DNA of 64,000 bases from a bacterium (GCA_030646915.1 JAUSKT010000021.1:19707-83706); one strand, 5' to 3'; shown: positions 7,819-64,000, counted from the first letter of the stretch. Notes: a model not told the origin generated them from the sequence alone. Translations and numbers: made by a program.

Positions 7819-8535
7819 ATGTCGCCTGATTTTGTGAAACAAAAAGCTCGTGAAATTTCTTACGCCCTTTTGAGGGTGGCTTTTTATATAAAGAGGGTAG
7901 AATTCCGATCCCGTTTGGAAGTTTTAGCAGTAGAGCTTTTAGAAAATGCTTCAAGGATAAGCGTTGATGCTAGTTTAGAAAATACCAATAAGGCCGTGGA
8001 AACAGTTTCGGTCTTAGATGGATTAATCCGTTTGGCGCACTCTATTTATGAAATAGAACCGGTGAACGCGACTATATTAGTTAGAGAATTAGATGGTCTT
8101 AGTTCGGCAATTCGGCAAGTATCGGAAAATTCTCAAAATCAATCCGGCAACCCAGTCTTTAATTCTGAATTGCCGAATTTGGAGAGCTTATTTTCTAAGG
8201 TTCCAGTAGCCGTTACTTCTTCAGTTAAACCGGTTTCTAGTTATGAAACTGTAAATTTGAATTCTTTTGAGAATAATCAGGAACCGACCTTATCAGATAA
8301 TAAGGCAAACGGCAACGGTAATAGTTTAAATACGGCAATTCGGCAATCGGCAATTATAAATAGGGTTAGATCCGGCAATGGGAATGGTTGTCGGTTAAAA
8401 GAATTAATTACAGATTTTTCCGATGTTAGCGAAAGAACCCTAAGATATGACCTCCAAAGGCTTTGTGATCAGGGCGTTATAGAAAGGGTGGGTAATGGGG
8501 GACCAGCCAGCTATTATAGGTATAAGAAGGAATAA
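7819..8535 (+). CDS. putative transcription regulator with C-terminal DeoR-type winged HTH
   Basis: C-terminal SERTLRYDLQRLCDQGVIERVGNGG matches the DeoR HTH pattern S-RT-R-DL--L---G-I-R--GG. Helical N-terminal domain. NGNG low-complexity linker. Confidence 0.55.
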   Translation: MSPDFVKQKAREISYALLRVAFYIKRVEFRSRLEVLAVELLENASRISVDASLENTNKAVETVSVLDGLIRLAHSIYEIEPVNATILVRELDGLSSAIRQVSENSQNQSGNPVFNSELPNLESLFSKVPVAVTSSVKPVSSYETVNLNSFENNQEPTLSDNKANGNGNSLNTAIRQSAIINRVRSGNGNGCRLKELITDFSDVSERTLRYDLQRLCDQGVIERVGNGGPASYYRYKKE

Positions 8536-8885: not shown

Positions 8886-9077
8886 TAAATATCGGGAAAT
8901 TATTCTTTTGCTGAGGTCGATCCTTTGAATAGCGAAAGCGAAACAGGGGATAAGCAAAAAGGAGTAATTTTTTAAAAAGATTAACAAAATTAATAAATAA
9001 TATAAATTTTCTTCTTAGGTTTGAACGTCGATAATTTAGATCTAAAGAGAAAAAGGTCAAATAAAAATAAATTAAAT

Positions 9078-48107: not shown

Positions 48108-49193
48108 ATGATTCCATTTGTAGACTTTACCCGAGAATATAAGGAAATAGGGAAGGAAATCGATGTCGCCATTAAGGAAGTTTTGGAACGGGGTTTTTTT
48201 ATTTTGGGTCCGGAATTAGAAAATTTTGAGAAAAAATTTGCAGAATATTGCGACGCCAAATATTGCGTGGGCGTAAATTCTGGAACTGACGCTTTATATC
48301 TGAGTTTGTTATGCGCAGGCATAGGTCCGGGGGATGAGGTGATAGTGCCGGTTAATACTGCCGTGCCTACGGCTATGGCCGTTTCCATGAGTGGAGCTAA
48401 GCCGGTTTTTGCAGATTGCGACGAGAATTTTTTGATTGATATTGATAAAATTCCCCAGCTTTTGACAAAAAAAACCAAAGCAATCATGCCAGTGCATCTT
48501 TATGGCCGGGCTTGCGACATGGGCCGTTTAAAAAAGTTGGCGGTTGCCAATAAATTATTTTTAATTGAAGATTGCGCCCAGTCTGCCGGCGCGGAATGGG
48601 ACGGAAAAAAAGTAGGAACTTTGGGAGATTTCGGATGCTTCAGTTTTTATCCGACAAAAAATCTCGGAGCTTACGGAGACGGAGGAGCGGTAATTATAAA
48701 TAATGAAGATTATTACAAAAAATTGCTCGCCTCCCGTTTTTATGGGCAGGCTGACCGGGTCCATTGTTCTGGATTCGGCATTAACAGCAGGCTGGATGAA
48801 ATCCAAGCCGCTATTTTAAATGCCAAACTTAAGCATCTTGATATTTGGAATAATGCAAGGCAAAAAATTGCCGATTTATATAGGAAATTAATAACCAATC
48901 CAAAAATTATTTTGCCGGCTGCCAGTAACGATAATAATCATATTTATCATCTTTTTGTCATAAGAGCTCCCAAAAGAGATTCGCTTAAAAAAATCCTTGA
49001 AGATAAAGGTATTAAAACAGCAATTCATTATCCCGCACCCCTTTCTCGGCATTCTTTTTTTGCCGGCGCAAAACAAGAATTATTTCCTATGGCGGACCAA
49101 TATGCTGGAGAAATACTTTCGTTGCCTATGCATCCTTTCTTAGAAGAATCTGAAATCAGGGAAATCGCCGACGTTTTAAATAATTATGCATAA
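48108..49193 (+). CDS. DegT-family PLP-dependent aminotransferase (FdtB/QdtB-like, dTDP-3-keto-6-deoxyhexose 3-aminotransferase)
   Basis: FVDFTREYKEIGKEIDVAIKEVLERGFFILGPELENFEKKFAEY. Adjacent to the FdtA-like gene. Confidence 0.8.
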   Translation: MIPFVDFTREYKEIGKEIDVAIKEVLERGFFILGPELENFEKKFAEYCDAKYCVGVNSGTDALYLSLLCAGIGPGDEVIVPVNTAVPTAMAVSMSGAKPVFADCDENFLIDIDKIPQLLTKKTKAIMPVHLYGRACDMGRLKKLAVANKLFLIEDCAQSAGAEWDGKKVGTLGDFGCFSFYPTKNLGAYGDGGAVIINNEDYYKKLLASRFYGQADRVHCSGFGINSRLDEIQAAILNAKLKHLDIWNNARQKIADLYRKLITNPKIILPAASNDNNHIYHLFVIRAPKRDSLKKILEDKGIKTAIHYPAPLSRHSFFAGAKQELFPMADQYAGEILSLPMHPFLEESEIREIADVLNNYA

Positions 49194-50889
49194 AAATACA
49201 GTTGTTAAGCCAGTATTCATAATACTGTTATTAAGCGTTCTTTTTACGGTTATAATCCAACTGGATCTTACTCGGGCTATTTTTTTTGATAATTATTTGA
49301 ACACTAGGCAGATCAGCGGCGTTAATTATTATTTGTCTTTAATTAATGAAAGTTCCAAGGGTAATTGGCAATTGGGAAGCCCTTATATTTTAGAATGGCG
49401 TTATGCGCCTTATTTATATCCCGCTTTAAATATTAACGCGCCGGGGCTGTTTAAAAGAGTTTTGGGCTTGGATATAAAATTATATGCTGCAATTATGGGG
49501 TATTTGTCTGTTTTTTCTATTATGGCCTTGATGTTAATGGCCTTTTCTTACATCTTTAGTTCTAATTATTTTGGTTATTTATTGGCAACAGTCTTTATTT
49601 TCTTTCCTAGGGTAATTATGTGGAATCGAACTTTGAGTCCAGAAATAAATTTTATACCTTTAGCGTTATTTTTAATTTTTTATTTCTCTAATTTTAAATT
49701 TTGGAAACGAGAAATAGGCTTAGCGCTTTCAACTGGAATTTTATTTTATATATATCCATATTATTGGACCTTTGCTTTAGTGCTTTTGGGAATAAGCGAT
49801 TTCTGGAAATTTTGGGATGAGAAGAAGATTATTTGGAATTATTTATATAAATATTTGCTTACTATGGGGCTTGCCTCATGGTATTTAGCCCATCTTTGGC
49901 AAATACAGCACCTTTCTTATTATCGCGAGACCATGGCAAGGATAGGTTTTCTTTATAGCCGTTTGCCGGCAGGCTGGTATACTCAAGCAGTTTTATTATC
50001 ATCTCTGATTATTTATTTCTTTTTAAAGAAATATATCTTTCCAAGATTAGATATAAAGATGATTGCTGATGGCGCCTTAAATAAGATTGTTGCCGGCTTG
50101 GTGGCTAGCTTAGTTGTCCTTAATCAGCAGCTTATTACTAATGTGCAAATGGAATTTAATTCCCATTATTTCCCGGTCATTCTGGTTTTTCTGGTTGCTT
50201 TTTGGGGAAGCTTAACTTTTATCTTAATTAGTAATTTTAATTTTTATAAAAAGAGCATTTTGATTTTTTTATCTTTTCTCCTGGTGACAGGATTAGTCGC
50301 GGTTAGAATATATCAGATATCTGCAAGCTTTGGCCCAGATGGTTATATCGGGGGCAAGGCAGATGGGGTAGTTGAATGGCTTTTAAAAAATCAGATTCAA
50401 GATAAGGTGGTATATGCGCCCGAAGATCTTGGCGATGAGATTAATTTGTGGACCAATAATTATTTAGTTTGGAATGACAACCAGGCATTGCAATTGACAC
50501 CGACCAATGAACTCATTGATCGTTTTACTTATTTTGATATTACCAACCAGAATATCACTAATCATCTTTTTGACCGGCAAACGGCAATTTTCGGACAAAC
50601 CTTTATTTCTTCAATGCAAAAAGACAATGTGATAAATAATATTAAGGCCAAGCTTTCAGGCAAGAATTTTGTGCCAGCCACTTTAGCGGAATATACAAAG
50701 TATGATTTTGAACCAATGTATAAAAAAAGGATTCAGCCAGACAGCGCTGAATTTAATAAATACTTGGAAAAATTCCATGTTAGTTATTTGGTATACAGGC
50801 AAAAAGATAGGAATAGCATTTACAAATCCGTACCGGGAAAAATTGTTTTTGAAAGCGAGTCTTATTTGATTAAAAAACTGGCGCCATAA
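49186..50889 (+). CDS. large polytopic membrane protein, putative GT-C-fold glycosyltransferase (1 of 3 in tandem)
   Basis: About 12 transmembrane helices. ISGVNYY motif in the first loop. 567 aa. Confidence 0.55.
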   Translation: MHKNTVVKPVFIILLLSVLFTVIIQLDLTRAIFFDNYLNTRQISGVNYYLSLINESSKGNWQLGSPYILEWRYAPYLYPALNINAPGLFKRVLGLDIKLYAAIMGYLSVFSIMALMLMAFSYIFSSNYFGYLLATVFIFFPRVIMWNRTLSPEINFIPLALFLIFYFSNFKFWKREIGLALSTGILFYIYPYYWTFALVLLGISDFWKFWDEKKIIWNYLYKYLLTMGLASWYLAHLWQIQHLSYYRETMARIGFLYSRLPAGWYTQAVLLSSLIIYFFLKKYIFPRLDIKMIADGALNKIVAGLVASLVVLNQQLITNVQMEFNSHYFPVILVFLVAFWGSLTFILISNFNFYKKSILIFLSFLLVTGLVAVRIYQISASFGPDGYIGGKADGVVEWLLKNQIQDKVVYAPEDLGDEINLWTNNYLVWNDNQALQLTPTNELIDRFTYFDITNQNITNHLFDRQTAIFGQTFISSMQKDNVINNIKAKLSGKNFVPATLAEYTKYDFEPMYKKRIQPDSAEFNKYLEKFHVSYLVYRQKDRNSIYKSVPGKIVFESESYLIKKLAP

Positions 50890-50947
50890 CAATAATAGCC
50901 TTTCGAGGTGTTCTAATATAAAATAGGATAATTAGCAAAATAAACTT

Positions 50948-52687
50948 ATGCTCAGCTTTATTTATTCTCGGGAAAAATACACTCTAGTCTTATTAAGTGT
51001 TGCGATTGGAATTTTAATTTCCGCTCCGGCAATTTATTTCCGTTATTTTGACGGCGGATATAAAGGCATAGATTTTTTTGGTTCGGACGCGGAAAATTAT
51101 TATTTAGGGCAAATTCAAGAAATTTATGATGGCCATTGGTTTTCGGGGAACATTTATGTAGAGGAGGGTAAAAATGACCCTTACGTGCAGCAGCCATTGC
51201 CAGCGATGATAATCGCTTTCTTGGGGCAATCTTTAGGAATATCTGCCAGAGACGTTAATGTCCTGACAAAATTTTTATTTCCAGCGCTTTTAACCGTCAT
51301 AGTTTATCTGTTTTTTTCTGCTTTAACTGGCCGTAAAGATTTTGCAATTTTGATGACGATTTTTGTGATGCTGATTCAGGCAAGCTGGATATTTTTTGAT
51401 CCTGGGTCTTGGCTGCCATTTTTATTGAAGGGAGAGTTCAGGGGCACTGATTATAATTTTATCAGCTATGCACGGCCTATTAATCCGCAGATCAGCTCCA
51501 TTTTCTTTTTTGGATATTTATTATGCGCTTGGAAATTTTTCTTCAGCCGTCTTTCTGAAAAAATGGAAAAGATATATGGGATCGCCAGCGCTGTTATTTT
51601 AGGATTGTCTTTTTATATATATTTTTTCACTTTTTCATTTTTATCAGTATTTAACGCGGTTTTATTTTTTTGGTTCTTATATTCCAGGGATTGGATCCGC
51701 CTGAAAAAGACTTTTCTTGTTTCAATCGGCGCCCTGGCCATTGCAGTGCCTTATTTTGCCAATGTTCTGGAAATGATGAAATCGCCGAATTACAGCCAGC
51801 TGGCCCATCGGACGAACATCCTCGAAACTCACAGATTTATTTTCAGCAAAGTGTGGTGGGGGGTGACCGCGCTTTTTCTGCTGTTATATCGCGGATCCCG
51901 CAAGGTAAAAATTTTTACTTTAGCCTTTCTAGCCACGGCATTTTTAGTCACCAATCAGCAGTTAATCACCGGGAAAACTTTACCGCTTCCAGCCCATTAT
52001 CATTGGTATTACATTGCTCCAATTGGGGGCGCGATTCTTGTTTACCTTTTTTTTATGTATTTTGAAAAGTTAGCCGGTCTTTTTGTATCGCGTTTGGCAA
52101 TGTTATTTTTTATTTTAATATCTTTTTATGCTGGTTTTTTGTATCAAAAAATTTCTTATACAAAACAGTGGGACTATTTTATTTATCAGCAAAGGTATGC
52201 CCCGATATTGTCTTGGTTAGATCTGGATATTAAGAAAGAAAGTGCTATTTTTACTAACGAAGATTTATCAGGGCTTATTCCTGCCTATACCCGCCATAAT
52301 GTTTATTATTCAGGTCTTTTAACTGATTCCCTGATAAGCGAAGAAAGGATTAGGCATTCTCTTTATGTTTATTTTTTTCTTAATGGCGTCACTGAAGATT
52401 CGGCTAGGGATTTTTTTTACGATAATCGGGATTGGGTGGGCAGCCAAATTTTCAGCGACTATTATCGGCAAAAAAGTGGCTGCCATGGATGTTTCCCGGA
52501 TTCTATTTTAGACGGATTTATCCAGGAATATCGGAAATTCCTTAAAAAGGGTTTTTTGGAACAGATTAAAAAATATCAGGTTGATTACGCCGTCTGGGAT
52601 AAAGAGAAAAATCCGGAATGGCGATTGGACCGTTTTTTTAATGAAAAAGTATATGAGAAAGATAATATTATCGTTTATAAATTTTAA
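50948..52687 (+). CDS. large polytopic membrane protein, putative GT-C-fold glycosyltransferase (2 of 3)
   Basis: FGSDAENYYLGQ loop motif after TM1. 579 aa. Confidence 0.55.
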   Translation: MLSFIYSREKYTLVLLSVAIGILISAPAIYFRYFDGGYKGIDFFGSDAENYYLGQIQEIYDGHWFSGNIYVEEGKNDPYVQQPLPAMIIAFLGQSLGISARDVNVLTKFLFPALLTVIVYLFFSALTGRKDFAILMTIFVMLIQASWIFFDPGSWLPFLLKGEFRGTDYNFISYARPINPQISSIFFFGYLLCAWKFFFSRLSEKMEKIYGIASAVILGLSFYIYFFTFSFLSVFNAVLFFWFLYSRDWIRLKKTFLVSIGALAIAVPYFANVLEMMKSPNYSQLAHRTNILETHRFIFSKVWWGVTALFLLLYRGSRKVKIFTLAFLATAFLVTNQQLITGKTLPLPAHYHWYYIAPIGGAILVYLFFMYFEKLAGLFVSRLAMLFFILISFYAGFLYQKISYTKQWDYFIYQQRYAPILSWLDLDIKKESAIFTNEDLSGLIPAYTRHNVYYSGLLTDSLISEERIRHSLYVYFFLNGVTEDSARDFFYDNRDWVGSQIFSDYYRQKSGCHGCFPDSILDGFIQEYRKFLKKGFLEQIKKYQVDYAVWDKEKNPEWRLDRFFNEKVYEKDNIIVYKF

Positions 52688-54304
52688 ATGTCATTCTCTT
52701 TTTTAAAAGAAAATAAAGTTTTTTTGGCAATTTTATTTTTAATTTTTTCTACTTATCTTTGGCTGGCCTGGCAGCCGATAGAAAAATTACTTTCCGGATT
52801 TTTAGTAGATGATGCCTTTTATTATTTTAAGTCGGCGGCTAATTTAGCAAATAGATTAGGCCCGACTTTTGATGGGGAACATCTGACTAATGGCTACCAT
52901 CCTTTGTGGATGGGGATTAATGCAGTTATTTATTATTTATTCCCCAATAATAAAATATTGCCCATTCATTTAATTCTGACTTTGGCGGTTTTATTTTTTG
53001 CTGGCGGCACATTGCTTTGTTGGAAGATTATTTCCCAGCTTGTCCAAGACAGGACTATGCAGATTCTTTTACTGCTTGCTTACGCCTTGAATCCTTGGAA
53101 TATCAGTAATATTTTGAATGGATTAGAAACTTCACTGGCGCTTTTTCTTCTTATATTGCTTTTCTGGCTTTTTTTAAGGATTTTGAATGGTAAAGATAGA
53201 ATCACGGATTTTTTGTTGTTGGGCATGGTGGGAGGCCTGACTGTTTTGGCAAGATTAGATTATGGATTATTTTTAGCGGCTATTCTTATTTTTTTCCTCT
53301 TTAAGAAAAAGTATTCTTGGCCGTCTTTACTTGCTTTTTCTTTGACCGCTTTTCTTTTGGCGGTGCCCTGGTTTTTATATAATTATTTTTATTTTGGTTC
53401 GTTAATTCCGGCGAGCGGCTTAGCTTATACATTAATTAATCACCGTCTATGGTTTTATAAGGATCGGAATTTAACTCAAATTCTGCTTTGGTCTTTGTAT
53501 AATTTTATTGGCACTATTACTTTTACTCTAAAGACCATCGGTCTGCCAAATTTTTATTCCGCTTCCAATCTATGGAAATCTTTTTGGTCTCTTGGAGTTA
53601 TTTTTTTTCCGATTATTGCAGGCATAATTTATTTTTATACAGTAAAGAGAGATCAATTTAAAGAATATTTAAGAAAGCTTATGGCTTCTAATGAATGGAT
53701 AGTCTTTATCATTTTTTTTATTGCTTACTTTGGCTTGATTGTTGTCCATGGGGCAATTCGATGGTCTAGTCGAGAATGGTATTTTGCGAGCTTTCCTTTT
53801 TTGGTTGTTATTTTTCTTGCCTTGCTTTTAAGTAGATCCTCTATGGAAATTTATTGTAAAAGAATATTACTGGCACTTGCCTTATTATTGGGCATTTCTT
53901 TTGGCATATCTTGGGCGGGCATTTTTACCCAATATAACGGCCAATTGGAAGCGTATAACGCTGCTTTGTGGGCTCGGGATAATCTTCCAGCTAATGTGCG
54001 TATTGCCGCTTTTAATAGCGGGGTTTTAGGCTATTTTAGCGAACGCTTTATCATGAATTCCGACGGGCTTATAAATAACAGCGCTTTTGAGGCGTTGAAA
54101 GAAAATCGTTTATGGGAATTATTTAAAAAGGAGCGCATTGATTATCTGATGGATTATGAAATCACCTTAACTTACCGCTTTAAATCTTTTTTGGGGATAG
54201 AAAATCCAATGGCAGAAGTTAACAGAATAAATATTCCTATTGTTTTAGCCCCTTCGTCGGAGAGTTATGCAGGTTCGCATATCGGTATTTTCCAGCTGAA
54301 GTAA
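52688..54304 (+). CDS. large polytopic membrane protein, putative GT-C-fold glycosyltransferase (3 of 3)
   Basis: FLVDDAFYYFKS loop motif after TM1. 538 aa. Confidence 0.55.
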   Translation: MSFSFLKENKVFLAILFLIFSTYLWLAWQPIEKLLSGFLVDDAFYYFKSAANLANRLGPTFDGEHLTNGYHPLWMGINAVIYYLFPNNKILPIHLILTLAVLFFAGGTLLCWKIISQLVQDRTMQILLLLAYALNPWNISNILNGLETSLALFLLILLFWLFLRILNGKDRITDFLLLGMVGGLTVLARLDYGLFLAAILIFFLFKKKYSWPSLLAFSLTAFLLAVPWFLYNYFYFGSLIPASGLAYTLINHRLWFYKDRNLTQILLWSLYNFIGTITFTLKTIGLPNFYSASNLWKSFWSLGVIFFPIIAGIIYFYTVKRDQFKEYLRKLMASNEWIVFIIFFIAYFGLIVVHGAIRWSSREWYFASFPFLVVIFLALLLSRSSMEIYCKRILLALALLLGISFGISWAGIFTQYNGQLEAYNAALWARDNLPANVRIAAFNSGVLGYFSERFIMNSDGLINNSAFEALKENRLWELFKKERIDYLMDYEITLTYRFKSFLGIENPMAEVNRINIPIVLAPSSESYAGSHIGIFQLK

Positions 54305-54307
54305 AGA

Positions 54308-54790
54308 TTGATTATGAACCCTATTCTTTTTGAAGAATTAAATCTAAATTTAGAAGGCCGGATAATTTTTTTGGATATTGATGGAACTTTAATTGCTGAC
54401 GGCAGCCAATTGGATTTTGAGCCAAAAATTTTAAATAAAATTAATTTTTTACGTCAGAAAAATCAGATCTTTCTTTGTACGAATTCCAGTGATAGAATCA
54501 GGAGTAATAAAATTGAAAGGGCGCTGAGTCTTCCAATTGCGACTTATAATCATAAAAAACCAAGCTCAAAGATAATAAAGGAACTCGGCATCGGCAAAGA
54601 AAATAAAAATTTCTTAGTGATTGGCGATAAAGTTTTAATTGACGGGCTTTTTGCTTTAAATATCGGCGCTGAATTTATAAAGGTTAAGAGGAAAATTTCT
54701 GGCCAAGAATCTTTAGTGATAAAGTTAATTAACTTGGCAGATGATTTAATATGCCAGGTAGTGAAACTTCGGTGGTTTCTCAAAAATTAA
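54308..54790 (+). CDS. HAD-superfamily phosphatase
   Basis: FLDIDGTLIAD motif I (DxDGT). LVIGDKVLIDG motif IV. Confidence 0.6.
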   Translation: MIMNPILFEELNLNLEGRIIFLDIDGTLIADGSQLDFEPKILNKINFLRQKNQIFLCTNSSDRIRSNKIERALSLPIATYNHKKPSSKIIKELGIGKENKNFLVIGDKVLIDGLFALNIGAEFIKVKRKISGQESLVIKLINLADDLICQVVKLRWFLKN

Positions 54791-54886
54791 TCAAGGCTAT
54801 AACTATAGACTTAGTCATTACAGAAATAATAATTAATTATAATTCAGAGCTTCGAAACTAATAATGCCGAAGTTCTACTACCTGGT

Positions 54887-55942
54887 ATGGCATATCGCGA
54901 AAATTCTAAAACTTATTTAATTACCGGCGGTTCGGGGTTTTTGGGAATTAATTTAGTCCGCTATTTATTGGCAAGGGGACAGCGGGTGCGTTCTTTAGAC
55001 GCCATTCCATTTGATTATCCGGAAAAAGATAAAATTGAGTGGCTAGCTGGAGATGTTCGGGATAAAGCTGCAGTAGATAAAGCCATGAAGGGAATTGATA
55101 TTGTTGTTCATTGCGCAGCGGCTCTTCCGCTTTATTCTAAAGAAGATATTTTAAGCACTGAAGTTGATGGAACTAGAAATGTTTTGGAAAGCGCTAAAAA
55201 TAATAATGTAGATCGATTCATTCATATTTCTTCGACAGCGGTTTATGGAATTCCGGACCATCATCCGATTTATGAAAATGATAAGCTGGTAGGCGTAGGG
55301 CCTTATGGAGAGGCAAAAATAAAAGCGGAAGAGCTTTGTTTGGCAGCTAGGAAAAATGGAATGTGTGTTTCGATTATCCGGCCGAAATCTTTTGTCGGCC
55401 CGGAGCGGCTGGGAGTTTTTGCGCTTTTTTATGATTGGGCGAAAAATGGTCATAATTTTCCAATGATCGGCAACGGCAAAAACCGTTATCAGCTTTTGGA
55501 TGTGGAAGATTTATGTGAAGCGATTTATTTGTGCAGTACTAAGCCAAAAGAGTCGGTGAATGATACTTTTAATGTGGGCGCCAAGGAATTTACCACCATG
55601 AAAGAAGATTATCAGGCAGTTTTAGATGAGGCGGGATTTGGCAAGAAAATTATCGGTTTTCCCGCAGCCCCGATGATCTGGACTCTCAGGTTTTTGGAAT
55701 TATTAAAATTATCGCCTTTATATAAATGGGTTTATGAAACTGCCGCTAAAGATTCTTTTGTATCCATAGAAAAAGCAGAGAAAAAATTAGATTGGCATCC
55801 GAAATATTCCAATAAACAAGCTTTGCTCCGGAATTATAAATGGTATTTGAAAAATCTTTATAAATTTGAAGGCAAGAGCGGCGTTTCCCACCGGGTTCCT
55901 TGGAAACAGGGTATACTGAAATTAGCTAAATTTTTCTTTTAG
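54887..55942 (+). CDS. NAD-dependent epimerase/dehydratase family SDR (UDP-hexose 4-epimerase-like)
   Basis: TYLITGGSGFLGINLVRYL; YGEAKIKAEE (YxxxK). Confidence 0.8.
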   Translation: MAYRENSKTYLITGGSGFLGINLVRYLLARGQRVRSLDAIPFDYPEKDKIEWLAGDVRDKAAVDKAMKGIDIVVHCAAALPLYSKEDILSTEVDGTRNVLESAKNNNVDRFIHISSTAVYGIPDHHPIYENDKLVGVGPYGEAKIKAEELCLAARKNGMCVSIIRPKSFVGPERLGVFALFYDWAKNGHNFPMIGNGKNRYQLLDVEDLCEAIYLCSTKPKESVNDTFNVGAKEFTTMKEDYQAVLDEAGFGKKIIGFPAAPMIWTLRFLELLKLSPLYKWVYETAAKDSFVSIEKAEKKLDWHPKYSNKQALLRNYKWYLKNLYKFEGKSGVSHRVPWKQGILKLAKFFF

Positions 55943-55944
55943 TT

Positions 55945-56808
55945 ATGAATATTTTTAAAAATTTATTAATTTCAATGCGGCCGAAGCAGTGGACGAAAAA
56001 CCTGTTTCTTTTTACTGCTTTGTTTTTTGTCAAAGCTTTTACGGATTTAGATAAGGTGCTTTTGGCAACTGAAGCTTTTGCTTTATTTTGTTTGGCATCC
56101 AGCGCAGTTTATTTATTGAACGATATTGCAGATTTGCCGAAAGATCGTGAACATCCGTTTAAAAGACTTCGACCTTTAGCCGCTGGCAAGATTAATGCAG
56201 CGCTGGTTGCAGTGATGGCAGTATTATTGGGGGCATCAGCAATAATTGGCGGATTTTATTTAAATTTTTGGTTTGGTCTTACTGTTGTCGGATATATTTT
56301 ATTGAATATTGCTTATTCATTGCTTTTAAAAAATCTGATTATCCTCGATGTTTTTACAATTGCCATTGGTTTTGTAATCCGGGTTGTTGCCGGAGCAGTT
56401 GCGATTAATGTACCTTTTTCTTCCTGGCTGATTTTATGCACTTTTTTCCTTACCTTGTTTCTTGCAATCAATAAAAGGAAAGGCGAATTGTTATTTAATT
56501 CTGCCAGTGGCAACAGGTCAGTTTTGCGGAATTATTCTGCGGGATTTTTAGACCAGATGAGTTTGATTGCGTTATCGGCAACTATTATCAGCTATACTTT
56601 TTATACTTTTAGTTCGGAACACAGCAAGCTTTTGATGCTGACAGTTCCAATCGTGCTTTACGGGCTTTTTAAATATCTTTTTATCGTAAATGAAAGCCAA
56701 GGCGCTGATGACGGCCCGAGTGATATTTTTTTGAGGGAATTCAGTTTACAGCTTACAGTTCTAGTTTGGATTGCGGCAGTGGCGTTAGTTTTACTTTACG
56801 GGAAGTAA
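55945..56808 (+). CDS. UbiA-family prenyltransferase resembling decaprenyl-phosphate 5-phosphoribosyltransferase (DPPR synthase)
   Basis: NDIADLPKD (NDxxDxxxD); RPLAAGKI; about 8 transmembrane helices; 287 aa. Confidence 0.75.
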   Translation: MNIFKNLLISMRPKQWTKNLFLFTALFFVKAFTDLDKVLLATEAFALFCLASSAVYLLNDIADLPKDREHPFKRLRPLAAGKINAALVAVMAVLLGASAIIGGFYLNFWFGLTVVGYILLNIAYSLLLKNLIILDVFTIAIGFVIRVVAGAVAINVPFSSWLILCTFFLTLFLAINKRKGELLFNSASGNRSVLRNYSAGFLDQMSLIALSATIISYTFYTFSSEHSKLLMLTVPIVLYGLFKYLFIVNESQGADDGPSDIFLREFSLQLTVLVWIAAVALVLLYGK

Positions 56809-58296
56809 CCCAACTTTTTTTGCTATCAATCTGGCTAAGTCGTCAAATCCTTTTTCGTGTTTAATTGCCTCAAGACTTTCCGCTCCTTCTCTGATTTTAG
56901 TGAGATTGGCATTTACAGAGTCTTCCAAAATTGCCCCGATAAAATTTATTAATTCTCGATCGTCATGGCGGAAGTTTTCTAACTGCTCTTTTACTAAATA
57001 AGGCAGTTTTTCAATATTGTCAGATCTTTTTACCATAGAAAGTTTATTAAACCAAACATCGGCGAAAGTAATGGTTGGTTTTTTGAGGAATATTGCTTCC
57101 CAAATTGCGCCTCCGCTAATAGAAAATACCAGTTTGGCATTTTTTATTAAATTTAGCCCTGCAATATTCGGATTGATCAACTGGATATTGGGTATTTTTA
57201 ATAATTCCTTATAATATTTCCTTGGCCTGTAGCCGACCATGGAAGGATGCTCTTTTACCAGAAGCTTAAAATTAATTGGAAGAGATTTGGCAATTTGCTT
57301 GATCAGATTTATTTGGTCGTTCCAAAAAGGCGCGTAAAGAAATAAGGCAATTTCCGGTTCATAGTGAAGTCCATAGAAGGCGTAATCTCCTTGAGTATCG
57401 GGCGCGGAATAGAGATCTGAATATCCGCGGAGCATTCTTACTTTTCTTTTAATTTTATCCCAAATTGAATACCAGAAGATTTCATCTGTGTAGTCCTTTT
57501 CTTTTTTTTGCAGATTTTTCCAAAAGAAATTAGATAACCAGGTCGCCAATTTAACAAACCGATGCGGCAAAAGGAACCGAAATTGTTTGAGGGTTGTAAG
57601 CGCGAGGTTGTCCGGCGAATAGGCGTCATAATACGACTGTGGATTATTTCTAAATTCTTCTAAAAATTGTTTTGCTTCTTTTTCTTTAGGATTAGGAATT
57701 TTACCTGATTGTATTTCATCAAATATTTTATTTGCCCAGCTGAAAGTCCTATAATCTTCGGTCAGAATAATCCCATTTTTAATCCGGCTGTAATTAAGGC
57801 TAAGGATTTTAACCCCCATTTTTTTACAAATATGATAAAGCAGCAGGGATGCCGTTGATCCAACGACTGAAGTAAATAAGAAATCAGGTTTTTCTTCTTT
57901 AAGAAATTTAATAATTTCTTTGGAAGTCACCTGAAGAACCCGGAGCATGTCTTCATAAGATAGTAATGGCTGATCGTGGGGATATTCTCTGATGAGCTGG
58001 CTATGCATTATTACTCGGTCTATGTATAAGTAATGCCAGAGGTTAGGAAGGCCATATTCTTTTTCCAGCCATTTTAAGTATTCAAAATCTAACTTTTCAT
58101 TCTTATATTTTTTATAAATATCTTCGTCTAAAAGAATTTTGGTTATTGGCAAGTCTTTTTGAGAACTCAAAAATTGATACGCGGTCCTTGGAGTAGTATA
58201 GATGCAAAATTCATCTACGCCATATTTCATAAGTTGTTTGGCAATATGGCAGCCTATTGGCGCAAATCTACGTTGTAAGAAGAAGCATCCTTTCAT
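56791..58296 (-). CDS. capsule polysaccharide biosynthesis protein family (KpsS/KpsC-like Capsule_synth)
   Basis: Rossmann-like layout. WNDQINLIKQIAKSLPINFKLLVKEHP pattern typical of this family. Assignment tentative. Confidence 0.45.
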   Translation of the reverse strand: MKGCFFLQRRFAPIGCHIAKQLMKYGVDEFCIYTTPRTAYQFLSSQKDLPITKILLDEDIYKKYKNEKLDFEYLKWLEKEYGLPNLWHYLYIDRVIMHSQLIREYPHDQPLLSYEDMLRVLQVTSKEIIKFLKEEKPDFLFTSVVGSTASLLLYHICKKMGVKILSLNYSRIKNGIILTEDYRTFSWANKIFDEIQSGKIPNPKEKEAKQFLEEFRNNPQSYYDAYSPDNLALTTLKQFRFLLPHRFVKLATWLSNFFWKNLQKKEKDYTDEIFWYSIWDKIKRKVRMLRGYSDLYSAPDTQGDYAFYGLHYEPEIALFLYAPFWNDQINLIKQIAKSLPINFKLLVKEHPSMVGYRPRKYYKELLKIPNIQLINPNIAGLNLIKNAKLVFSISGGAIWEAIFLKKPTITFADVWFNKLSMVKRSDNIEKLPYLVKEQLENFRHDDRELINFIGAILEDSVNANLTKIREGAESLEAIKHEKGFDDLARLIAKKVGLLPVK

Positions 58297-58379: not shown

Positions 58380-58408
58380 TTGACTTTCATCAAGTTATAA
58401 TCTAAAAT
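58380..58408 (+). promoter_or_regulatory. putative sigma70 promoter TTGACT-N17-TAAAAT upstream of pseB
   Basis: Sits in the 145-nt divergent intergenic region. Confidence 0.3.
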
Positions 58409-58441: not shown

Positions 58442-59419
58442 ATGAATTACGATTTTCTAAATGGGAAAACTGTTTTAGTCACCGGAGGCACCGGTTCTTT
58501 TGGGAATAAATTTATTGAAACATTATTAACTAAAGCTGATTGTAAAAAAATTATAGTATTAAGCAGAGATGAGTTTAAGCAGCACGAAATGAAGCAGAGG
58601 TTCCCTAATTCAGAAAAGAAACTAAGATTTTTTTTAGGGGATATTAGGGACGTTTCCCGCCTCCAGCGCGCTTTTCAGGGCGTGGACATAGTAGTGCATG
58701 CCGCTGCTTTAAAGCAGGTTCCGGCTTTGGAATTTAATCCATTGGAAGCAGTTAAAACTAATGTTCTTGGCACTCAGAATGTTATTGACGCAGCTTTAGA
58801 CAATAAGGTTCAAAAAGTTTTATTTGTTTCTACTGATAAAGCAGTTAACCCAATTAATCTTTATGGCGCTACTAAGCTTTGCGCTGAAAAGCTTTGGATT
58901 GCCGCTAATGCTTATCGCCCAAATAGAGAAGCTACTTCTTTCAGTTTAGTTCGCTATGGGAATGTCGTCGGCAGCCGCGGCAGCATAGTTGAAGTTTTAA
59001 ATAATCAAAAAAAGAATGGCGTAGTTACTTTGACTCATGAAGATATGACTCGTTTTTGGATCAGCCTGGATCAGGGCGTGGAATTAGTTTTATACGGCTT
59101 AAAAAAAATGAAGGGCGGTGAAATTTTCTTGCCAAAACTTCCAGCTATGAAAATCAGCGATCTGATTTCTTCAATGGCTCCGGGATGCGAGGTGAAAGTT
59201 GTAGGAATCCGGCCGGGAGAAAAATTGCACGAAGCTCTTATGACTGAGGATGAAGTTCGGAGAGCAAAAGATGTGGGGGATTATTATTTGGTTGAGCCAA
59301 ATCATGATTGGTGGGATGGATCGCATTTGAAAGAATTCCAGGCATTGCCGGAAGATATGTCTTATGTAAGCGATAGAGTTGATCGGCTTACTCATGAAGA
59401 TTTTATAAGATTGGTTTAA
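58442..59419 (+). CDS. pseB: UDP-N-acetylglucosamine 4,6-dehydratase (inverting), PseB/FlaA1/CapD family
   Basis: TVLVTGGTGSFGNKF; KAVNPINLYGATKLCAEKL; RYGNVVGSRGS. Very close to the H. pylori FlaA1 pattern as I recall it. Confidence 0.9.
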   Translation: MNYDFLNGKTVLVTGGTGSFGNKFIETLLTKADCKKIIVLSRDEFKQHEMKQRFPNSEKKLRFFLGDIRDVSRLQRAFQGVDIVVHAAALKQVPALEFNPLEAVKTNVLGTQNVIDAALDNKVQKVLFVSTDKAVNPINLYGATKLCAEKLWIAANAYRPNREATSFSLVRYGNVVGSRGSIVEVLNNQKKNGVVTLTHEDMTRFWISLDQGVELVLYGLKKMKGGEIFLPKLPAMKISDLISSMAPGCEVKVVGIRPGEKLHEALMTEDEVRRAKDVGDYYLVEPNHDWWDGSHLKEFQALPEDMSYVSDRVDRLTHEDFIRLV

Positions 59420-59441
59420 ATTTGAATCAGTATTTTTTGAA

Positions 59442-60584
59442 ATGATACCTTACGGACATCAATCTATAGATGACTCTGATATAAAAGCGGTTATAAAGGT
59501 TTTAAAATCAGATTGGCTTAGCCAGGGCCCTAAGATTGCTGAATTTGAAGAGGCTTTAGCTAAATATTGCGGCGCCAAATACGCTGTGATTTTTTCCAGC
59601 GGTACTGCGGCGCTTCATGCAGCTTATTTTTCAGCAGGATTGAAATCGGGAGATGAATTCATTACTACTCCATTAACTTTTGCCGCAACTGGCAATGCCG
59701 GTCTTTATTTAGGCGCAAAGCCGGTTTTTGCCGATATTGGAGAAGATTTGAATTTGGATCCTGAAGAAACGGTTAAAAAAATAAACTCCAAGACCAAACT
59801 TATTTCTGTGGTGGATTTTGCTGGGTTGCCGGCTAAATTGGATGAATTGAAAAAAATCGCCCGTAAACATAATTTAGTTTTAGTGGAAGACGGATGCCAT
59901 GCGCTGGGAGCAAGCTATAAGGGTAAAAAAATCGGTTCCGTCGCTGATATGACGGCATTTAGTTTTCATCCGGTAAAATCCATTACTACAGGAGAAGGCG
60001 GCGCGGTGCTTACTGACAATAAAGATTACTATGAAAAAATGAAAGTTTTCCGCCATCATGGAATCGTGCGCGACCCATCCAAATTCAAAAATAAATCAGA
60101 TGGCGATTGGTATCATGAAATGCAGGAGCTTGGATTCAATTATCGGATTACTGATATCCAGGCGGCTCTGGGAATTTCCCAGCTGAAAAGACTGGATAAA
60201 TTTATAAAGGCAAGAAAGAAAATTGCATCAGCTTATAACCAAGCTTTCAAGAAATTTTCTGATAAAATAAAACTTCCGTCAGACAGCAAAGATTTTTCTT
60301 CATCTTGGCATATTTATATTTTAAGATTAAAAGGAAAATTAGAAAAAAAACGCGCAGAGGTTTTCAAAAAATTAAGAGAAGCAGGAATTGGAGCGCAGGT
60401 CCATTATTTGCCGGTTTATCTGCATCCGTATTATCAGTCTTTGGGCTATAAAAAGGGTTTATGCCCGAAAGCGGAAGAATATTATGAAACAGCCATTTCT
60501 TTACCGATTTTCCCAGATCTAAAATTAAAAGACCAGCAATTTGTAATTAAAAAACTCAATGAAATCCTTAAAAGTTATTTGTGA
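59442..60584 (+). CDS. pseC: UDP-4-amino-4,6-dideoxy-N-acetyl-beta-L-altrosamine transaminase (PseC, DegT family)
   Basis: FSFHPVKSITTGEGGAVLTDN; KMKVFRHHG; GAQVHYLPVY. Confidence 0.88.
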   Translation: MIPYGHQSIDDSDIKAVIKVLKSDWLSQGPKIAEFEEALAKYCGAKYAVIFSSGTAALHAAYFSAGLKSGDEFITTPLTFAATGNAGLYLGAKPVFADIGEDLNLDPEETVKKINSKTKLISVVDFAGLPAKLDELKKIARKHNLVLVEDGCHALGASYKGKKIGSVADMTAFSFHPVKSITTGEGGAVLTDNKDYYEKMKVFRHHGIVRDPSKFKNKSDGDWYHEMQELGFNYRITDIQAALGISQLKRLDKFIKARKKIASAYNQAFKKFSDKIKLPSDSKDFSSSWHIYILRLKGKLEKKRAEVFKKLREAGIGAQVHYLPVYLHPYYQSLGYKKGLCPKAEEYYETAISLPIFPDLKLKDQQFVIKKLNEILKSYL

Positions 60585-61077
60585 AGTTTCCAATAAACAT
60601 TGCCATTTGACTGAAGAAGCTTTAAAAAAATCCGGACTGAATTTAACGAAATTAAAGGACTTATCTCAACCAGGACAGTGGGTCAGTAAAGAATATTATA
60701 ATGATGGTCAGGATAATTTTCGGGTTATTTTGCCTTCGAGAGAAACGGATCAATTTGAGCTTTCTTTAACTGATTGGATTAAGCGTTTTGGCCGAGATGC
60801 AGAACCAAAATGGAAAAGAAATAAAGAGTCCGGATATGTAGTAACTTTGCGCCACCTCCATATTTCCGATTTGCAAGCTGAAGAGCTTGGCCTTAAAGAT
60901 GGAGATTTTGTTTCTATCAGAAATATCGGAATAAGAGCGGGTCAGTTCGATAAAGTTTTAGTTCGAGTGAATTCCAATTTTGATTTTCGAGTGCATTTAG
61001 ATACTGATGAAGCCAATGCGCTTTATATAAAAAATGGAGATGAGGTAGAATTAGTTTTATCTAATAAAAGAACCTAA
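60559..61077 (+). CDS. PduL-type phosphate acyltransferase (phosphotransacylase)
   Basis: Two PduL repeats: VSNKHCHLT and VTLRHLHIS. LSQPGQW. HLDTDEANA (compare Salmonella PduL HIDTDEANA). Overlaps the pseC 3' end by 26 nt. Confidence 0.75.
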   Translation: MKSLKVICEVSNKHCHLTEEALKKSGLNLTKLKDLSQPGQWVSKEYYNDGQDNFRVILPSRETDQFELSLTDWIKRFGRDAEPKWKRNKESGYVVTLRHLHISDLQAEELGLKDGDFVSIRNIGIRAGQFDKVLVRVNSNFDFRVHLDTDEANALYIKNGDEVELVLSNKRT

Positions 61078-61095
61078 ATATTTCAAGTAATATAT

Positions 61096-62058
61096 ATGCA
61101 CAATAAAAAATTAAACTCTATTATGATTGTTGGGCTTGGTTCTATTGGCCGGCGGCATCTTAAAAATGTTTTGGCATTGGGGTATCGCAACGTGAGCGGT
61201 GTAGAGCCGAATAAAAAAAATGCTACAGCTGTGCAGGAAGAATTTTCTATTTCTGTGTATAATTCTTTGCAATTTGGTTTAAAGCAGGCGAAACCAGATG
61301 CAGTTTTTATATGCTCTCCTACAAATTTTCATATTTTAAACGCAATGGCTGCCCTTCGCGCTGGCTCGCACATTTTTATTGAAAAACCGTTATCAGTAAA
61401 TTTAAAAGGCGTTGATAATCTTATTCATTTGGCAAAACAAAAGAAAAAAATAGCAATGGTAGCTTGCAATTATCTTTTTCATCACGGATTTCAAAAATTG
61501 CAAAAAATTTTAGCGCAAAAAATTTACGGAAAACCGCTTTTTTGCCGGGTTACGGTTAGTTATTACTTGCCAACAGCCCGGAAAAATTCTAATTATAAAA
61601 ATCTTTATGCGGCGAGAAAAAATCAAGGCGGGGGAGTGGTTTTAGATTCCGGCAGCCATACAGTTAATTATTTACAGAATCTTTTCGGAAAAATAAAAAA
61701 AAGCGAGATAATTACTAGCAAACTTCATTCTTTAGGAATTCAAAGCGAAGAAGCTGCAGTTTTGGTATTGGAACATGCCAATGGGATTTTGAGCACTATT
61801 TCTCTAGATTATTTAAGTAAAAAACCTATTCATCGGCTGGAAGTAGTTACTGATCGAGGGTTGTTGATTTTAGATATCAAAGATGACTTCCTAGTATTTA
61901 AAGACGGTAAAAATAAAAAAGTGATTTATAAAGGCAATGGGGGTGCGAACCAGATGTTTCTTGATGAATTGAAATATTTTTTTCACTCTCTTAAAGAGAG
62001 AAAAAAACCGCTACAAGATTTAGAAGAGGCAAAAGAAATATTAAAAATTTTGGTTTAA
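61096..62058 (+). CDS. Gfo/Idh/MocA-family NAD(P)-dependent oxidoreductase
   Basis: IMIVGLGSIGRRHL N-terminal Rossmann; EKPLS motif. Confidence 0.85.
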   Translation: MHNKKLNSIMIVGLGSIGRRHLKNVLALGYRNVSGVEPNKKNATAVQEEFSISVYNSLQFGLKQAKPDAVFICSPTNFHILNAMAALRAGSHIFIEKPLSVNLKGVDNLIHLAKQKKKIAMVACNYLFHHGFQKLQKILAQKIYGKPLFCRVTVSYYLPTARKNSNYKNLYAARKNQGGGVVLDSGSHTVNYLQNLFGKIKKSEIITSKLHSLGIQSEEAAVLVLEHANGILSTISLDYLSKKPIHRLEVVTDRGLLILDIKDDFLVFKDGKNKKVIYKGNGGANQMFLDELKYFFHSLKERKKPLQDLEEAKEILKILV

Positions 62059-62070
62059 CTTAGTTATAAG

Positions 62071-63411
62071 TTGGTTAGTTCTAATAATATGGCTATCAAA
62101 AACCAAAAAGGGATTGCTTTATGGAATAGAGCAAAAAAAATTATTCCCGGCGGGAGCCAGCTTTTATCTAAGCGTTCGGAAATGTTTTTGCCGGATCAAT
62201 GGCCTTCTTATTATAAAAAAGCTAAAGGCATTGAAATTCTAGATTTAGACGGTAAAAAATATATGGATTTTTCTATTATGGGCGTCGGTTCCTGCGCGCT
62301 TGGTTATGCTGATCCGGATGTGAATAAGGCAGTAAAATCTGCGATAGATAACGGTTCAATGTCAACTCTTAATTGTCCAGAGGAAGTGGAATTAGCAGAG
62401 CTTTTAATTAAATTGCACCCTTGGGCAAAAATGGCCCGCTATGCAAGGACTGGCGGGGAAGCAATGGCAGTGGCGGTGAGAATTGCCCGCGCTTACAGCG
62501 GCAAGGAAAAGGTAGTTTTTTGCGGCTATCATGGCTGGTCAGATTGGTATTTGGCCGCGAATTTAGCCGATCAGAAAAATTTAGACGGGCATTTGCTTCC
62601 AGGCTTGGAACCTGCAGGAGTTCCTCGTTCTCTTAGAGGAACAACGCTGGCTTTTTCATATAACCATATTGATGAATTAGAGAAGCTTGTAAAAGAAAAT
62701 AACGATATAGGCGTTATTGTAGTTGAACCATTTAGGCATCAACAGCCCCAAAATGATTTTTTAAAAAAGGTAAAAAAGATTGCCGAAAAAATCGGGGCAG
62801 TATTGATTTTTGATGAAGTTACCATTGCTTGGCGACTGAATGCCGGCGGCGTGCATCTTTTATATCGAGTTAATCCGGATATTGCTGTTTTGGGCAAAGC
62901 TATGAGTAATGGCTATCCGATGGCGGCGATTATTGGGCGGGAGGAAGTCATGCAGGCAGCCCAAAAAACTTTTATTAGTAGTACTTATTGGACGGAGAGG
63001 ATCGGGCCGACTGCATCTTTGGCAACGATTAAAAAAATGCAAAAAGTTAATCTACCAAGGCATTTAAAGAAAATTGGCAAGATGATCGGTGATGGCTGGC
63101 AAAAATTAGCAAAAAAACATCAATTAAAATTAAATGTTATCGGACCAGAAGCTTTAATCACTTTTTCTTTTGATTATAAAGATGATAGCCAGGCGATCAG
63201 GACTTTATTTACCCAAGAAATGCTGAAGCGGGGATTTTTAGCTTCTTCCAGTGTTTACGTTTCTTATGCGCATAAGCCTTATCATGTGAAAAAATATTTG
63301 AAAACAGTTGATGAAGTATTTGGAATTATTAAAAAAGCGATTTCAGATAAAAGAATCACTACCATTCTTAACGGTCCGGTTTCTCATACTGGATTTAAGC
63401 GTCTTACTTAA
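62071..63411 (+). CDS. class III (glutamate-1-semialdehyde aminomutase-like) PLP-dependent aminotransferase
   Basis: GGSQLLSKR; IFDEVTIAWRLNAGG; 446 aa. Confidence 0.85.
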   Translation: MVSSNNMAIKNQKGIALWNRAKKIIPGGSQLLSKRSEMFLPDQWPSYYKKAKGIEILDLDGKKYMDFSIMGVGSCALGYADPDVNKAVKSAIDNGSMSTLNCPEEVELAELLIKLHPWAKMARYARTGGEAMAVAVRIARAYSGKEKVVFCGYHGWSDWYLAANLADQKNLDGHLLPGLEPAGVPRSLRGTTLAFSYNHIDELEKLVKENNDIGVIVVEPFRHQQPQNDFLKKVKKIAEKIGAVLIFDEVTIAWRLNAGGVHLLYRVNPDIAVLGKAMSNGYPMAAIIGREEVMQAAQKTFISSTYWTERIGPTASLATIKKMQKVNLPRHLKKIGKMIGDGWQKLAKKHQLKLNVIGPEALITFSFDYKDDSQAIRTLFTQEMLKRGFLASSSVYVSYAHKPYHVKKYLKTVDEVFGIIKKAISDKRITTILNGPVSHTGFKRLT

Positions 63412-63417
63412 AATTTA

Positions 63418-64000
63418 TGGTTACCGCAATAATTCAAGCTCGGATGGGTTCTACTCGACTGCAGGGTAAGGTTTTGAAAAAGGTTTTGGGCAAGACAATG
63501 CTGGAATATCAAATTGAGAGAGTAAAACGAGCCAAGACTATTAATCAGATTATTCTTGCAACCACCACTAATTCAGAGAATAAAAAAATTATCCAACTTG
63601 CTCAAAAATTAAAAGTTAGGGCGTTTGCCGGTTCAGAAAACGATGTATTGGACCGTTATTATCAGGCAGCTACAAGATTCGGCATTGATGATGTAATCGT
63701 AAGATTAACTGGCGATTGTCCGCTAACCGATCCTAATATCATCGATAGGGTAGTCAGATTTTATCTAAAAAATAAAAAAAGCTGCCAATATGCAAATAAT
63801 GTCGATCCGCCGACTTTTCCGGATGGCATGGATGTAGAAGTTTTTTCATTTAATATATTAAAAGAAGCATGGCAAAAAGCGGATTTGCTTTCGGAACGAG
63901 AACACGTGACTCCTTATATCAGGAATCATCCGGAAAAATTCAAAATTAAAAATTTAAAAAGCAGAAAAGATTTATCTCGCCCACGCTTGGTACTTGATAA
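63418..64000 (+). CDS. acylneuraminate / nonulosonate cytidylyltransferase family (PseF/NeuA/SpsF-like), truncated at window end
   Basis: MVTAIIQARMGSTRLQGKVLKKVLGK. No stop codon before position 64000. Confidence 0.75.

Follow-up and report, generated by a model that had tools for sequence, protein, structure and literature searches.

A shortened PduL relative is a conserved part of sialic-acid-like sugar clusters in bacteria of the candidate phyla radiation

The phosphotransacylase PduL (PTAC domain, PF06130) is, to our knowledge, described only as a coenzyme A (CoA)-recycling enzyme of microcompartments and as a fermentative substitute for the phosphotransacetylase Pta. The canonical pathway to the cytidine monophosphate (CMP)-activated form of pseudaminic acid in Helicobacter and Campylobacter uses the proteins PseB, PseC, PseH, PseG, PseI and PseF. 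Here we describe a PTAC-domain protein of 172 amino acids (aa), hereafter the short PTAC, encoded in a pseudaminic-acid-type gene cluster at the end of a 64,000-nucleotide (nt) stretch of bacterial DNA (the window; GCA_030646915.1, JAUSKT010000021.1:19707-83706). PseB, PseC and a CTP_transf_3 cytidylyltransferase are common to the window and the canonical pathway. Unlike that pathway, the window adds the short PTAC, a Gfo/Idh/MocA oxidoreductase (MocA) and a class-III aminotransferase, and its cytidylyltransferase is SpsF-like. The window proteins are identical to NCBI entries MDO8430343-47, which come from a 90,866-nt contig. The nearest relatives of the short PTAC and the aminotransferase carry the labels Tagabacteria, Harrisonbacteria, Vogelbacteria, Nealsonbacteria, Parcubacteria or Patescibacteria, which places the source genome in the candidate phyla radiation (CPR, Patescibacteria). 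The trimmed PduL relative is a conserved and previously undescribed part of the CPR clusters for sialic-acid-like sugars (nonulosonic acids, NulO). It extends a known enzyme family to a new functional setting and does not constitute a new kind of system. In the literature searched, no paper connects pseudaminic, legionaminic or nonulosonic acids with PduL or phosphate propanoyltransferase, and NulO pathways of CPR bacteria receive hardly a mention.

The AlphaFold2 model of the 172-aa protein (predicted local distance difference test score, 90.4) has a single full-length structural match, the R. palustris PduL 5CUO (E 3e-15; template modelling score 0.81 on the query and 0.74 on the target), with about 29% identity in the structural alignment. 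BLASTP identity to canonical PduLs is 35-41%, and the PF06130 match is split into two stretches. An earlier note on this DNA, made by a model from the sequence alone, had reported a PduL with a double RHxH motif and the signature HLDTDEANA. The family, RHLH (residues 98-101) and HLDTDEANA (146-154) stand; the first motif, by contrast, is KHCH (13-16). The roles of the Zn ligands, CoA contacts and phosphate site have been assigned in rPduL (PMC4784909), and we followed these residues through an alignment of 119 homologues. The six Zn ligands (H48, H50, E109, H157, H159 and H204 of rPduL; H14, H16, E67, H99, H101 and H146 here) are invariant in the 119 sequences, as is Arg103 (R61 here), and Arg194 is conserved, a few sequences having Lys instead. 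Sugar-linked short PTACs keep the CoA contacts Ser45, Lys70, Arg97, Leu99, His204 and Asn211 as S11, K33, R55, I57, H146 and N153; more distant short forms have lost Arg97. Thus, the short form resembles PduL (5CUO/5CUP) in its two-barrel fold, six Zn ligands, Arg103, Arg194 and CoA contacts.

The short form is also trimmed, its core being about 20 residues shorter than that of PduL. The segment between E109 and H157 has 31 aa versus 47 in canonical PduL (16 fewer), and the lid segment (78-96) has 14 versus 19-20. Short PTACs lack the R125-x-S127-G128 loop, which is invariant in the approximately 70 canonical PduLs. Ser127 of this loop positions phosphate in the 5CUP structure (PMC4784909). 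Where PduL has Ala154 in its acyl pocket, short PTACs have Thr or Ile, which suggests a smaller pocket compatible with acetyl. Unlike PduL, the short form has no encapsulation peptide, and it is linked to sugar and acetyltransferase genes; microcompartment genes and acetate or propionate kinase genes were found neither in the window (Pfam, tblastn) nor in the short-PTAC loci.

Short PTACs are monophyletic in a neighbour-joining tree of 58 sequences (bootstrap 100/100) and fall into two tiers, 64-83% (tier 1, sugar-linked) and about 39-52% (tier 2) identical to the window protein. Together, the predicted structure and the tree identify the 172-aa protein as a real PduL-fold enzyme of a separate clade. 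A search of 1.84 billion representatives at 50% identity yielded 1,499 PTAC-like representatives, and only four short-form sequences (162-170 aa, 179-235 bits) scored above the canonical PduLs (128 bits or less). The clade is small within this census, and it is CPR-restricted. A profile scan of genome contigs with the short-clade alignment returned at least two short-clade loci among the matches listed (L008 and L009; relatives of the window locus are numbered in this way throughout); canonical PduLs, which share the HLDTDEAN motif, dominated the list. Scanning metagenome contigs with the pattern QFELSLTDW[IV] gave 10 loci, four of them chance matches (L096, L098-L100).

The same radiation also carries PduLs of the usual kind. 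Full-length PduLs (189-190 aa) lie directly upstream of acetate kinase in Patescibacteria (L079, 10001-13564) and Buchananbacteria (L083, 10007-11859), and the L079 gene is also upstream of pyruvate:ferredoxin oxidoreductase (PFOR). These proteins match PF06130 as a single stretch (189-201 bits), still have the Ser127 loop region and fall among the canonical PduLs in the tree. Their position beside acetate kinase argues that PduL, not Pta, is the fermentative phosphotransacetylase of these lineages. The CPR module of PduL and acetate kinase, with or without PFOR, therefore has a PduL of the same family, full-length and with the loop region, whereas the window's is short. Among the short-PTAC loci examined, the short clade was never found in an acetate-kinase or PFOR context.

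In the window, the short PTAC is the third of six co-directional genes:

58380..58408, plus strand: putative promoter, TTGACT-17-TAAAAT (10 of 12 consensus matches), in the 145-nt AT-rich gap upstream of pseB
58442..59419, plus strand: PseB, inverting UDP-GlcNAc 4,6-dehydratase, 325 aa (TIGR03589, 438.2 bits, cut-off 407.75; Polysacc_synt_2, E 5e-99)
59442..60584, plus strand: PseC, UDP-4-amino-4,6-dideoxy-N-acetyl-beta-L-altrosamine transaminase, 380 aa (TIGR03588, 502.1 bits, cut-off 423.5; DegT_DnrJ_EryC1, E 2e-118)
60559..61077, plus strand: short PduL/PTAC-fold dimetal protein, 172 aa (PF06130, 109.1 bits, gathering score 25)
61096..62058, plus strand: Gfo/Idh/MocA NAD(P)-dependent oxidoreductase, 320 aa (GFO_IDH_MocA N- and C-terminal domains)
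62071..63411, plus strand: class-III (glutamate-1-semialdehyde (GSA)-aminomutase-like) pyridoxal-phosphate aminotransferase (Aminotran_3, E 5e-43; PRK06209, 265 bits, cut-off 486)
63417..64000, plus strand: SpsF-type cytidylyltransferase (CTP_transf_3), ending at the window edge (PF02348, E 6e-36)

The six genes (58442-64000) are spaced by -26 to +22 nt and form one tight operon. PseB and PseC both exceed their NCBIfam equivalog cut-offs, and the overlap of pseC with the short PTAC gene is exactly 26 nt (60559-60584); the earlier note had described both features correctly. The other gaps measure 5-22 nt. The TTGACT-17-TAAAAT site is a possible operon promoter by its consensus match alone, as promoter-like sites in the pseB upstream region are not enriched over shuffled sequences.

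This linkage of the short PTAC to NulO genes is conserved, recurring in at least seven different gene orders. The window and L001 have the order PseB-PseC-PTAC-MocA-AT3-CTP3 (AT3, class-III aminotransferase; CTP3, CTP_transf_3). The closest architecture is that of L009, PseB-PseC-PTAC-CTP3-rSAM-GNAT-Fmt-like (rSAM, radical S-adenosylmethionine enzyme), in which a PseH-like GNAT is the third gene past the PTAC. L002-L007 and L097 have Hexapep-DegT-dehydratase-PTAC-DUF218-NeuB-Hexapep-DegT; L088/L089/L102, L008, L107, L095 and L101 have NeuC-Hexapep-PTAC-DegT; L090 has GNAT...FdtA-DegT-PTAC-HisF...NeuB; L103 has PTAC-CTP3-rSAM-HisH-WbpG-like-HisF...PIG-L-GNAT-NeuB; and L104 has DegT-PTAC-DUF218-GNAT-NeuB. 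The gene adjoins, and often overlaps, the DegT/PseC aminotransferase gene (window, L009, L090, L104, L088, L008, L095 and L101). Furthermore, the host clusters follow both a PseB/PseC-type route, as in the window, and a NeuC/NeuB-type route, as in L088 (NeuC, 368 bits versus a cut-off of 236; NeuB, 429 versus 400). The role of the short PTAC is therefore not bound to one sugar stereochemistry.

All related clusters with enough sequence also encode an acetyltransferase, either a Hexapep protein or a PseH-like GNAT. Tier-1 Hexapeps are proteins of 144-152 aa, encoded directly upstream of the short PTAC in L088, L008, L095 and L107 (with a 4-nt overlap in L107); a Hexapep or GNAT lies elsewhere in the cluster in L002, L090, L103, L104 and L009. 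The GNATs are only PseH-like (36-50 bits versus a cut-off of 93). Pairing with an acetyltransferase extends to tier 2, where the PTAC directly follows a RimI-like 146-aa GNAT in unrelated housekeeping neighbourhoods outside NulO clusters (L091 and L092) or a 129-aa Hexapep in another, non-NulO sugar cluster (L105). The earlier note had placed the PduL relative within the sugar cluster, as these gene orders confirm, and had it standing in for the usual acetyltransferase, a proposal that the acetyltransferases of the relatives do not support.

We also observed several recurrent genes around the short PTACs. Hexapeps of 129-147 aa beside short PTACs (L088 9486-9929, L002 7452-7886, L107 9298-9738 and L105 4609-4998) match just the C-terminal left-handed beta-helix (LbH) part (model positions from about 101/116 to 202) of the NeuD/PglB/VioB family TIGR03570 and appear to lack the N-terminal nucleotide-sugar-binding domain. 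A DUF218 (YdcF/SanA-like) gene lies directly 3' of the short PTAC in L002 (10538-11164), L005 and L104 (3446-4102) and forms a fusion with a CTP_transf_3 cytidylyltransferase in L090 (4919-6292); DUF218 is a recurrent, uncharacterised member of CPR NulO clusters. Formyl_trans_N and Formyl_trans_C_2 genes adjoin the PseH-like GNATs in L009 (5155-5868) and L103 (8740-9765 and 11730-12446), and WbpG-like, HisH and HisF genes are present in L088, L090 and L103. These formyltransferase-like and WbpG/HisH/HisF genes hint at N-formyl and acetamidino NulO variants. Some clusters (L002 and L103) also encode PIG-L deacetylases.

GNAT and Hexapep acetyltransferases have unrelated folds and have acetyl-CoA in common. 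The pairing of the short PTAC with either fold, its retained CoA and metal residues and its independence of sugar stereochemistry therefore argue for a service role centred on CoA. Our favoured explanation, to which we assign a probability of roughly 45%, is that the short PTAC is a dedicated acetyl-CoA-recharging partner of N-acetyltransferases. The 172-aa protein would be a catalytically intact, CoA-binding PduL fold serving the acetyl-CoA-dependent N-acetyltransferases of surface-glycan pathways, which here would begin at UDP-GlcNAc via PseB and PseC. It would run the phosphotransacetylase reaction in the anabolic direction (acetyl-phosphate + CoA -> acetyl-CoA + Pi) and so keep the small CoA pool of such a metabolically minimal cell charged for the N-acetyltransferase, which in turn would acetylate the 4-amino sugar from the adjacent DegT/PseC aminotransferase. 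Thus, the short PTAC would accompany the acetyltransferase and not replace it. We infer the acetyl substrate, the reaction direction and the recharging role; the fold, the metal and CoA residues, the separate clade and the gene linkage are the observations at hand. The chief consumer of acetyl-CoA in such CPR cells may be sugar N-acetylation.

Several observations weigh against a recharging partner. Deletion of the Ser127 loop, for which the short PTACs have no conserved Ser-Gly substitute, means that binding of phosphate or acyl-phosphate is not assured. The protein also falls under the NCBIfam cut-off for PduL (NF011652, 111.4 versus 209), as it does for EutD (NF040837, 94.5 versus 315). Neither the window nor any short-PTAC locus showed acetate kinase or another source of acetyl-phosphate, and the tier-2 locus L106 has no acetyltransferase within 5 kb of the PTAC. 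Finally, no acetyltransferase is visible in the window itself. We covered the full 64 kb by tblastn (E<=0.1) and nearly all open reading frames (ORFs) of at least 150 aa with Pfam and found no homologues of GNAT, Hexapep, NeuB/PseI, NeuC or AckA; the absence of a GNAT PseH agrees with the earlier note. General Pfam scans of the window likewise reported no PseG-type (family 28) glycosyltransferase, for which no dedicated query was run. The absence of pseH, pseI and pseG is most simply explained by the cluster being cut at position 64000, as relatives have the GNAT and NeuB downstream: a PseH-like GNAT in L009 and L094, and NeuB in L094 and every longer relative. A PseH-like GNAT, a NeuB/PseI synthase and the other absent steps would then be expected just past the window end.

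The missing acetyltransferase could also mean, much as the earlier note proposed, that the short PTAC is itself an N-acyltransferase, with a dimetal site that moves an acyl group from acyl-CoA or acyl-phosphate to the 4-amino nucleotide sugar. The adjacency or overlap with the DegT/PseC gene in most sugar-linked contexts fits this idea, as does the loss of the Ser127 loop with the CoA contacts kept, since the acceptor site could then admit something larger than phosphate. Furthermore, the neighbouring 129-147-aa Hexapeps, having the C-terminal LbH part only, may not be self-sufficient. We nevertheless consider direct acylation unlikely, because every related cluster with enough sequence already has its own Hexapep or PseH-like GNAT. 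L088, for example, has one aminotransferase, one Hexapep and one NeuB, which leaves no acylation step over, and the more remote short PTACs have RimI-like GNATs as partners in non-sugar neighbourhoods. We know of no precedent for amine acylation by a PTAC fold. It is similarly doubtful that the short PTAC is a PduL-fold dimetal acyltransferase without a phosphate site, or else a catalytic or CoA-handling subunit working with the truncated Hexapeps. If direct acylation or such a two-part enzyme were true, CPR bacteria would have an N-acylation chemistry unseen in characterised NulO pathways.

Loss of the phosphate loop with retention of all metal ligands would also fit a hydrolase, whose dimetal site would activate water. 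Such an enzyme could be an acyl-CoA thioesterase, a nucleotide-sugar phosphoesterase replacing PseG, or an N-deacetylase that makes a sugar nitrogen available to a non-acetyl substituent. The acetamidino (WbpG/HisH/HisF-like) and formyltransferase-like genes of the relatives point to such non-standard N-substituents, and in L009 and L094, both Pse-type relatives, Pfam annotation without a dedicated PseG query gave no PseG-type glycosyltransferase. However, the sugar-linked tier retains the full set of CoA contacts and Arg103, L002 and L103 already have their PIG-L deacetylases, and hydrolysis leaves the pairing with GNATs outside sugar clusters unexplained, so that we regard a hydrolase as quite improbable. 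We rejected replacement of PseG as a general role, as the gene also occurs in NeuC-type clusters, which need no PseG. Least probable is a housekeeping Pta analogue that sits in the sugar cluster by chance, even though the protein belongs to PF06130, its metal site is intact and CPR bacteria do pair PduL-type enzymes with acetate kinase. The acetate-kinase-linked copies are full-length and cluster with canonical PduLs, whereas the short form is a separate clade with shared deletions, is rare (just four of the 1,499 PTAC-like representatives) and repeats its NulO linkage in at least seven gene orders. We therefore rejected chance placement, and the sequence comparisons indicate that the short PTAC is not the cell's fermentative Pta analogue. 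The earlier note had reasoned that a pseH just downstream, together with a PduL-less copy of the cluster, would reduce the PduL to a chance neighbour. PseH-like GNATs do lie downstream in L009 and L094, and PTAC-less clusters occur in other organisms (L093 and L094), but the reasoning fails because the NulO linkage is conserved; the neighbour-joining tree also separates the clade from fermentative PduL.

The remaining three genes of the operon recur as a unit, which gives substance to the earlier note's pairing of the MocA protein with the class-III aminotransferase; Pfam confirmed all three assignments. The MocA protein has no NCBIfam equivalog, its best matches being inositol 2-dehydrogenase and UDP-GlcNAc 3-dehydrogenase, far under their cut-offs. 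The aminotransferase has thousands of CPR homologues (67-89% identity). Its TTG-start form (62071) has no entry in the public protein collection, and the true start is probably the ATG at 62089, giving 440 aa as in relatives. The closest solved structures of the two enzymes are generic GSA aminomutases and inositol-type dehydrogenases; for 'PmdC', the PDB name of a distant MocA match, the literature gave merely an unrelated lignin enzyme. The cytidylyltransferase scores only 32 bits against PseF (TIGR03584, cut-off 205.7) over a 194-aa fragment, and among solved structures it comes closest to 6oew ('Cytidylyltransferase', 139 bits). By these scores it is SpsF-like and no PseF equivalog; it is presumed to be the CMP-nonulosonate synthetase, the CMP-sugar synthetase of the earlier note.

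Orthologues of the cytidylyltransferase (56-62% identity) follow the class-III aminotransferase or the PTAC in L009, L093, L094 and L103. In L093, which shares its upstream gene order with the window, the trio stands without PseB, PseC and PTAC; in L094 it is again without PTAC but has a PseB-like dehydratase and DegT (PseB-like-DegT-...-MocA-AT3-CTP3-GNAT-ATP-grasp-HAD-NeuB; HAD, haloacid dehalogenase family). Gene order thus identifies MocA, the class-III aminotransferase and the SpsF-type cytidylyltransferase as a separate, very conserved module of the same clusters. A 677-aa protein (P0200) fuses the aminotransferase to CTP_transf_3, which argues that both enzymes act on the same or successive intermediates. 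We reasonably infer that the module would perform an oxidation and then a transamination on a NulO or its CMP derivative. Two papers on NulO clusters mention neither class-III aminotransferases nor MocA proteins. The non-Sg1 (Sg6/Sg12) O-antigen locus of Legionella pneumophila has a GNAT, PseG, a 'glutamate-1-semialdehyde aminomutase' and an acylneuraminate cytidylyltransferase in this order (PMC3694923). As in the window, a GSA-like class-III enzyme thus stands beside a cytidylyltransferase in a NulO cluster, and the HisH/HisF/WbpG-like acetamidino genes of that locus are also present in L088, L090, L093 and L103. Unlike the window, the Legionella locus belongs to a proteobacterium, and nothing PduL-like figures in its gene table. 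Its GSA-like enzyme, too, has no characterised role (PMC3694923).

The operon closes one very large surface-glycan region that runs from about 13.5 kb to the window end. The region contains many family GT4 and GT2 glycosyltransferase genes, GT-C/PMT_2-like membrane proteins, methyltransferases, a B12-radical SAM enzyme, three DegT aminotransferases, GDP-mannose dehydratases, and a set of UbiA, short-chain dehydrogenase/reductase (SDR) and HAD genes. One further feature lies directly upstream of the operon:

56791..58296, minus strand: 501-aa protein, divergent from pseB (tblastn E 7e-18 and 4e-21 to two Capsule_synth proteins of L002)

The 501-aa protein, a candidate transferase of the acidic sugar (NulO), has no Pfam match at 1e-3 and is distant kin of Capsule_synth (KpsS/KpsC-like) proteins, whose genes border the L002, L005, L093 and L094 sugar clusters. 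Positions 49186-56808 encode three large membrane proteins (567, 579 and 538 aa) with no match in Pfam or just a weak one to PMT_2; genes for a small HAD phosphatase, an SDR epimerase/reductase and a UbiA prenyltransferase come next. This set resembles a polyprenyl-phosphate sugar donor pathway supplying GT-C glycosyltransferases; L093 has the same two membrane proteins and epimerase in synteny. A 1,219-aa ORF (9021-12680) between ClpB and the glycan region has no Pfam match, nor do two ORFs near it (6759-7514 and 7819-8535). B12-binding radical SAM enzymes recur in CPR NulO and glycan clusters (window 24470-26299, L008, L009, L090, three copies in L094, and L103), which suggests that the sugars undergo C-methylation or another radical modification. 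We also noted a partial PseB (P0122) in the same 90% cluster (at least 90% identity) as the window PseB and labelled 'Nanoarchaeota archaeon' at NCBI, reflecting either a binning error or a recent transfer between CPR and DPANN.

The PduL fold would thus gain a new role, with a structurally trimmed clade tied to N-acetyltransferases and to clusters for sialic-acid-like sugars. This points to a local regeneration of acetyl-CoA or to a new acyl transfer, in organisms with almost no central metabolism. Furthermore, the window and its relatives reveal that Patescibacteria encode large and varied NulO pathways, and the resulting sugars may bear on the surface that such epibionts show to their hosts.

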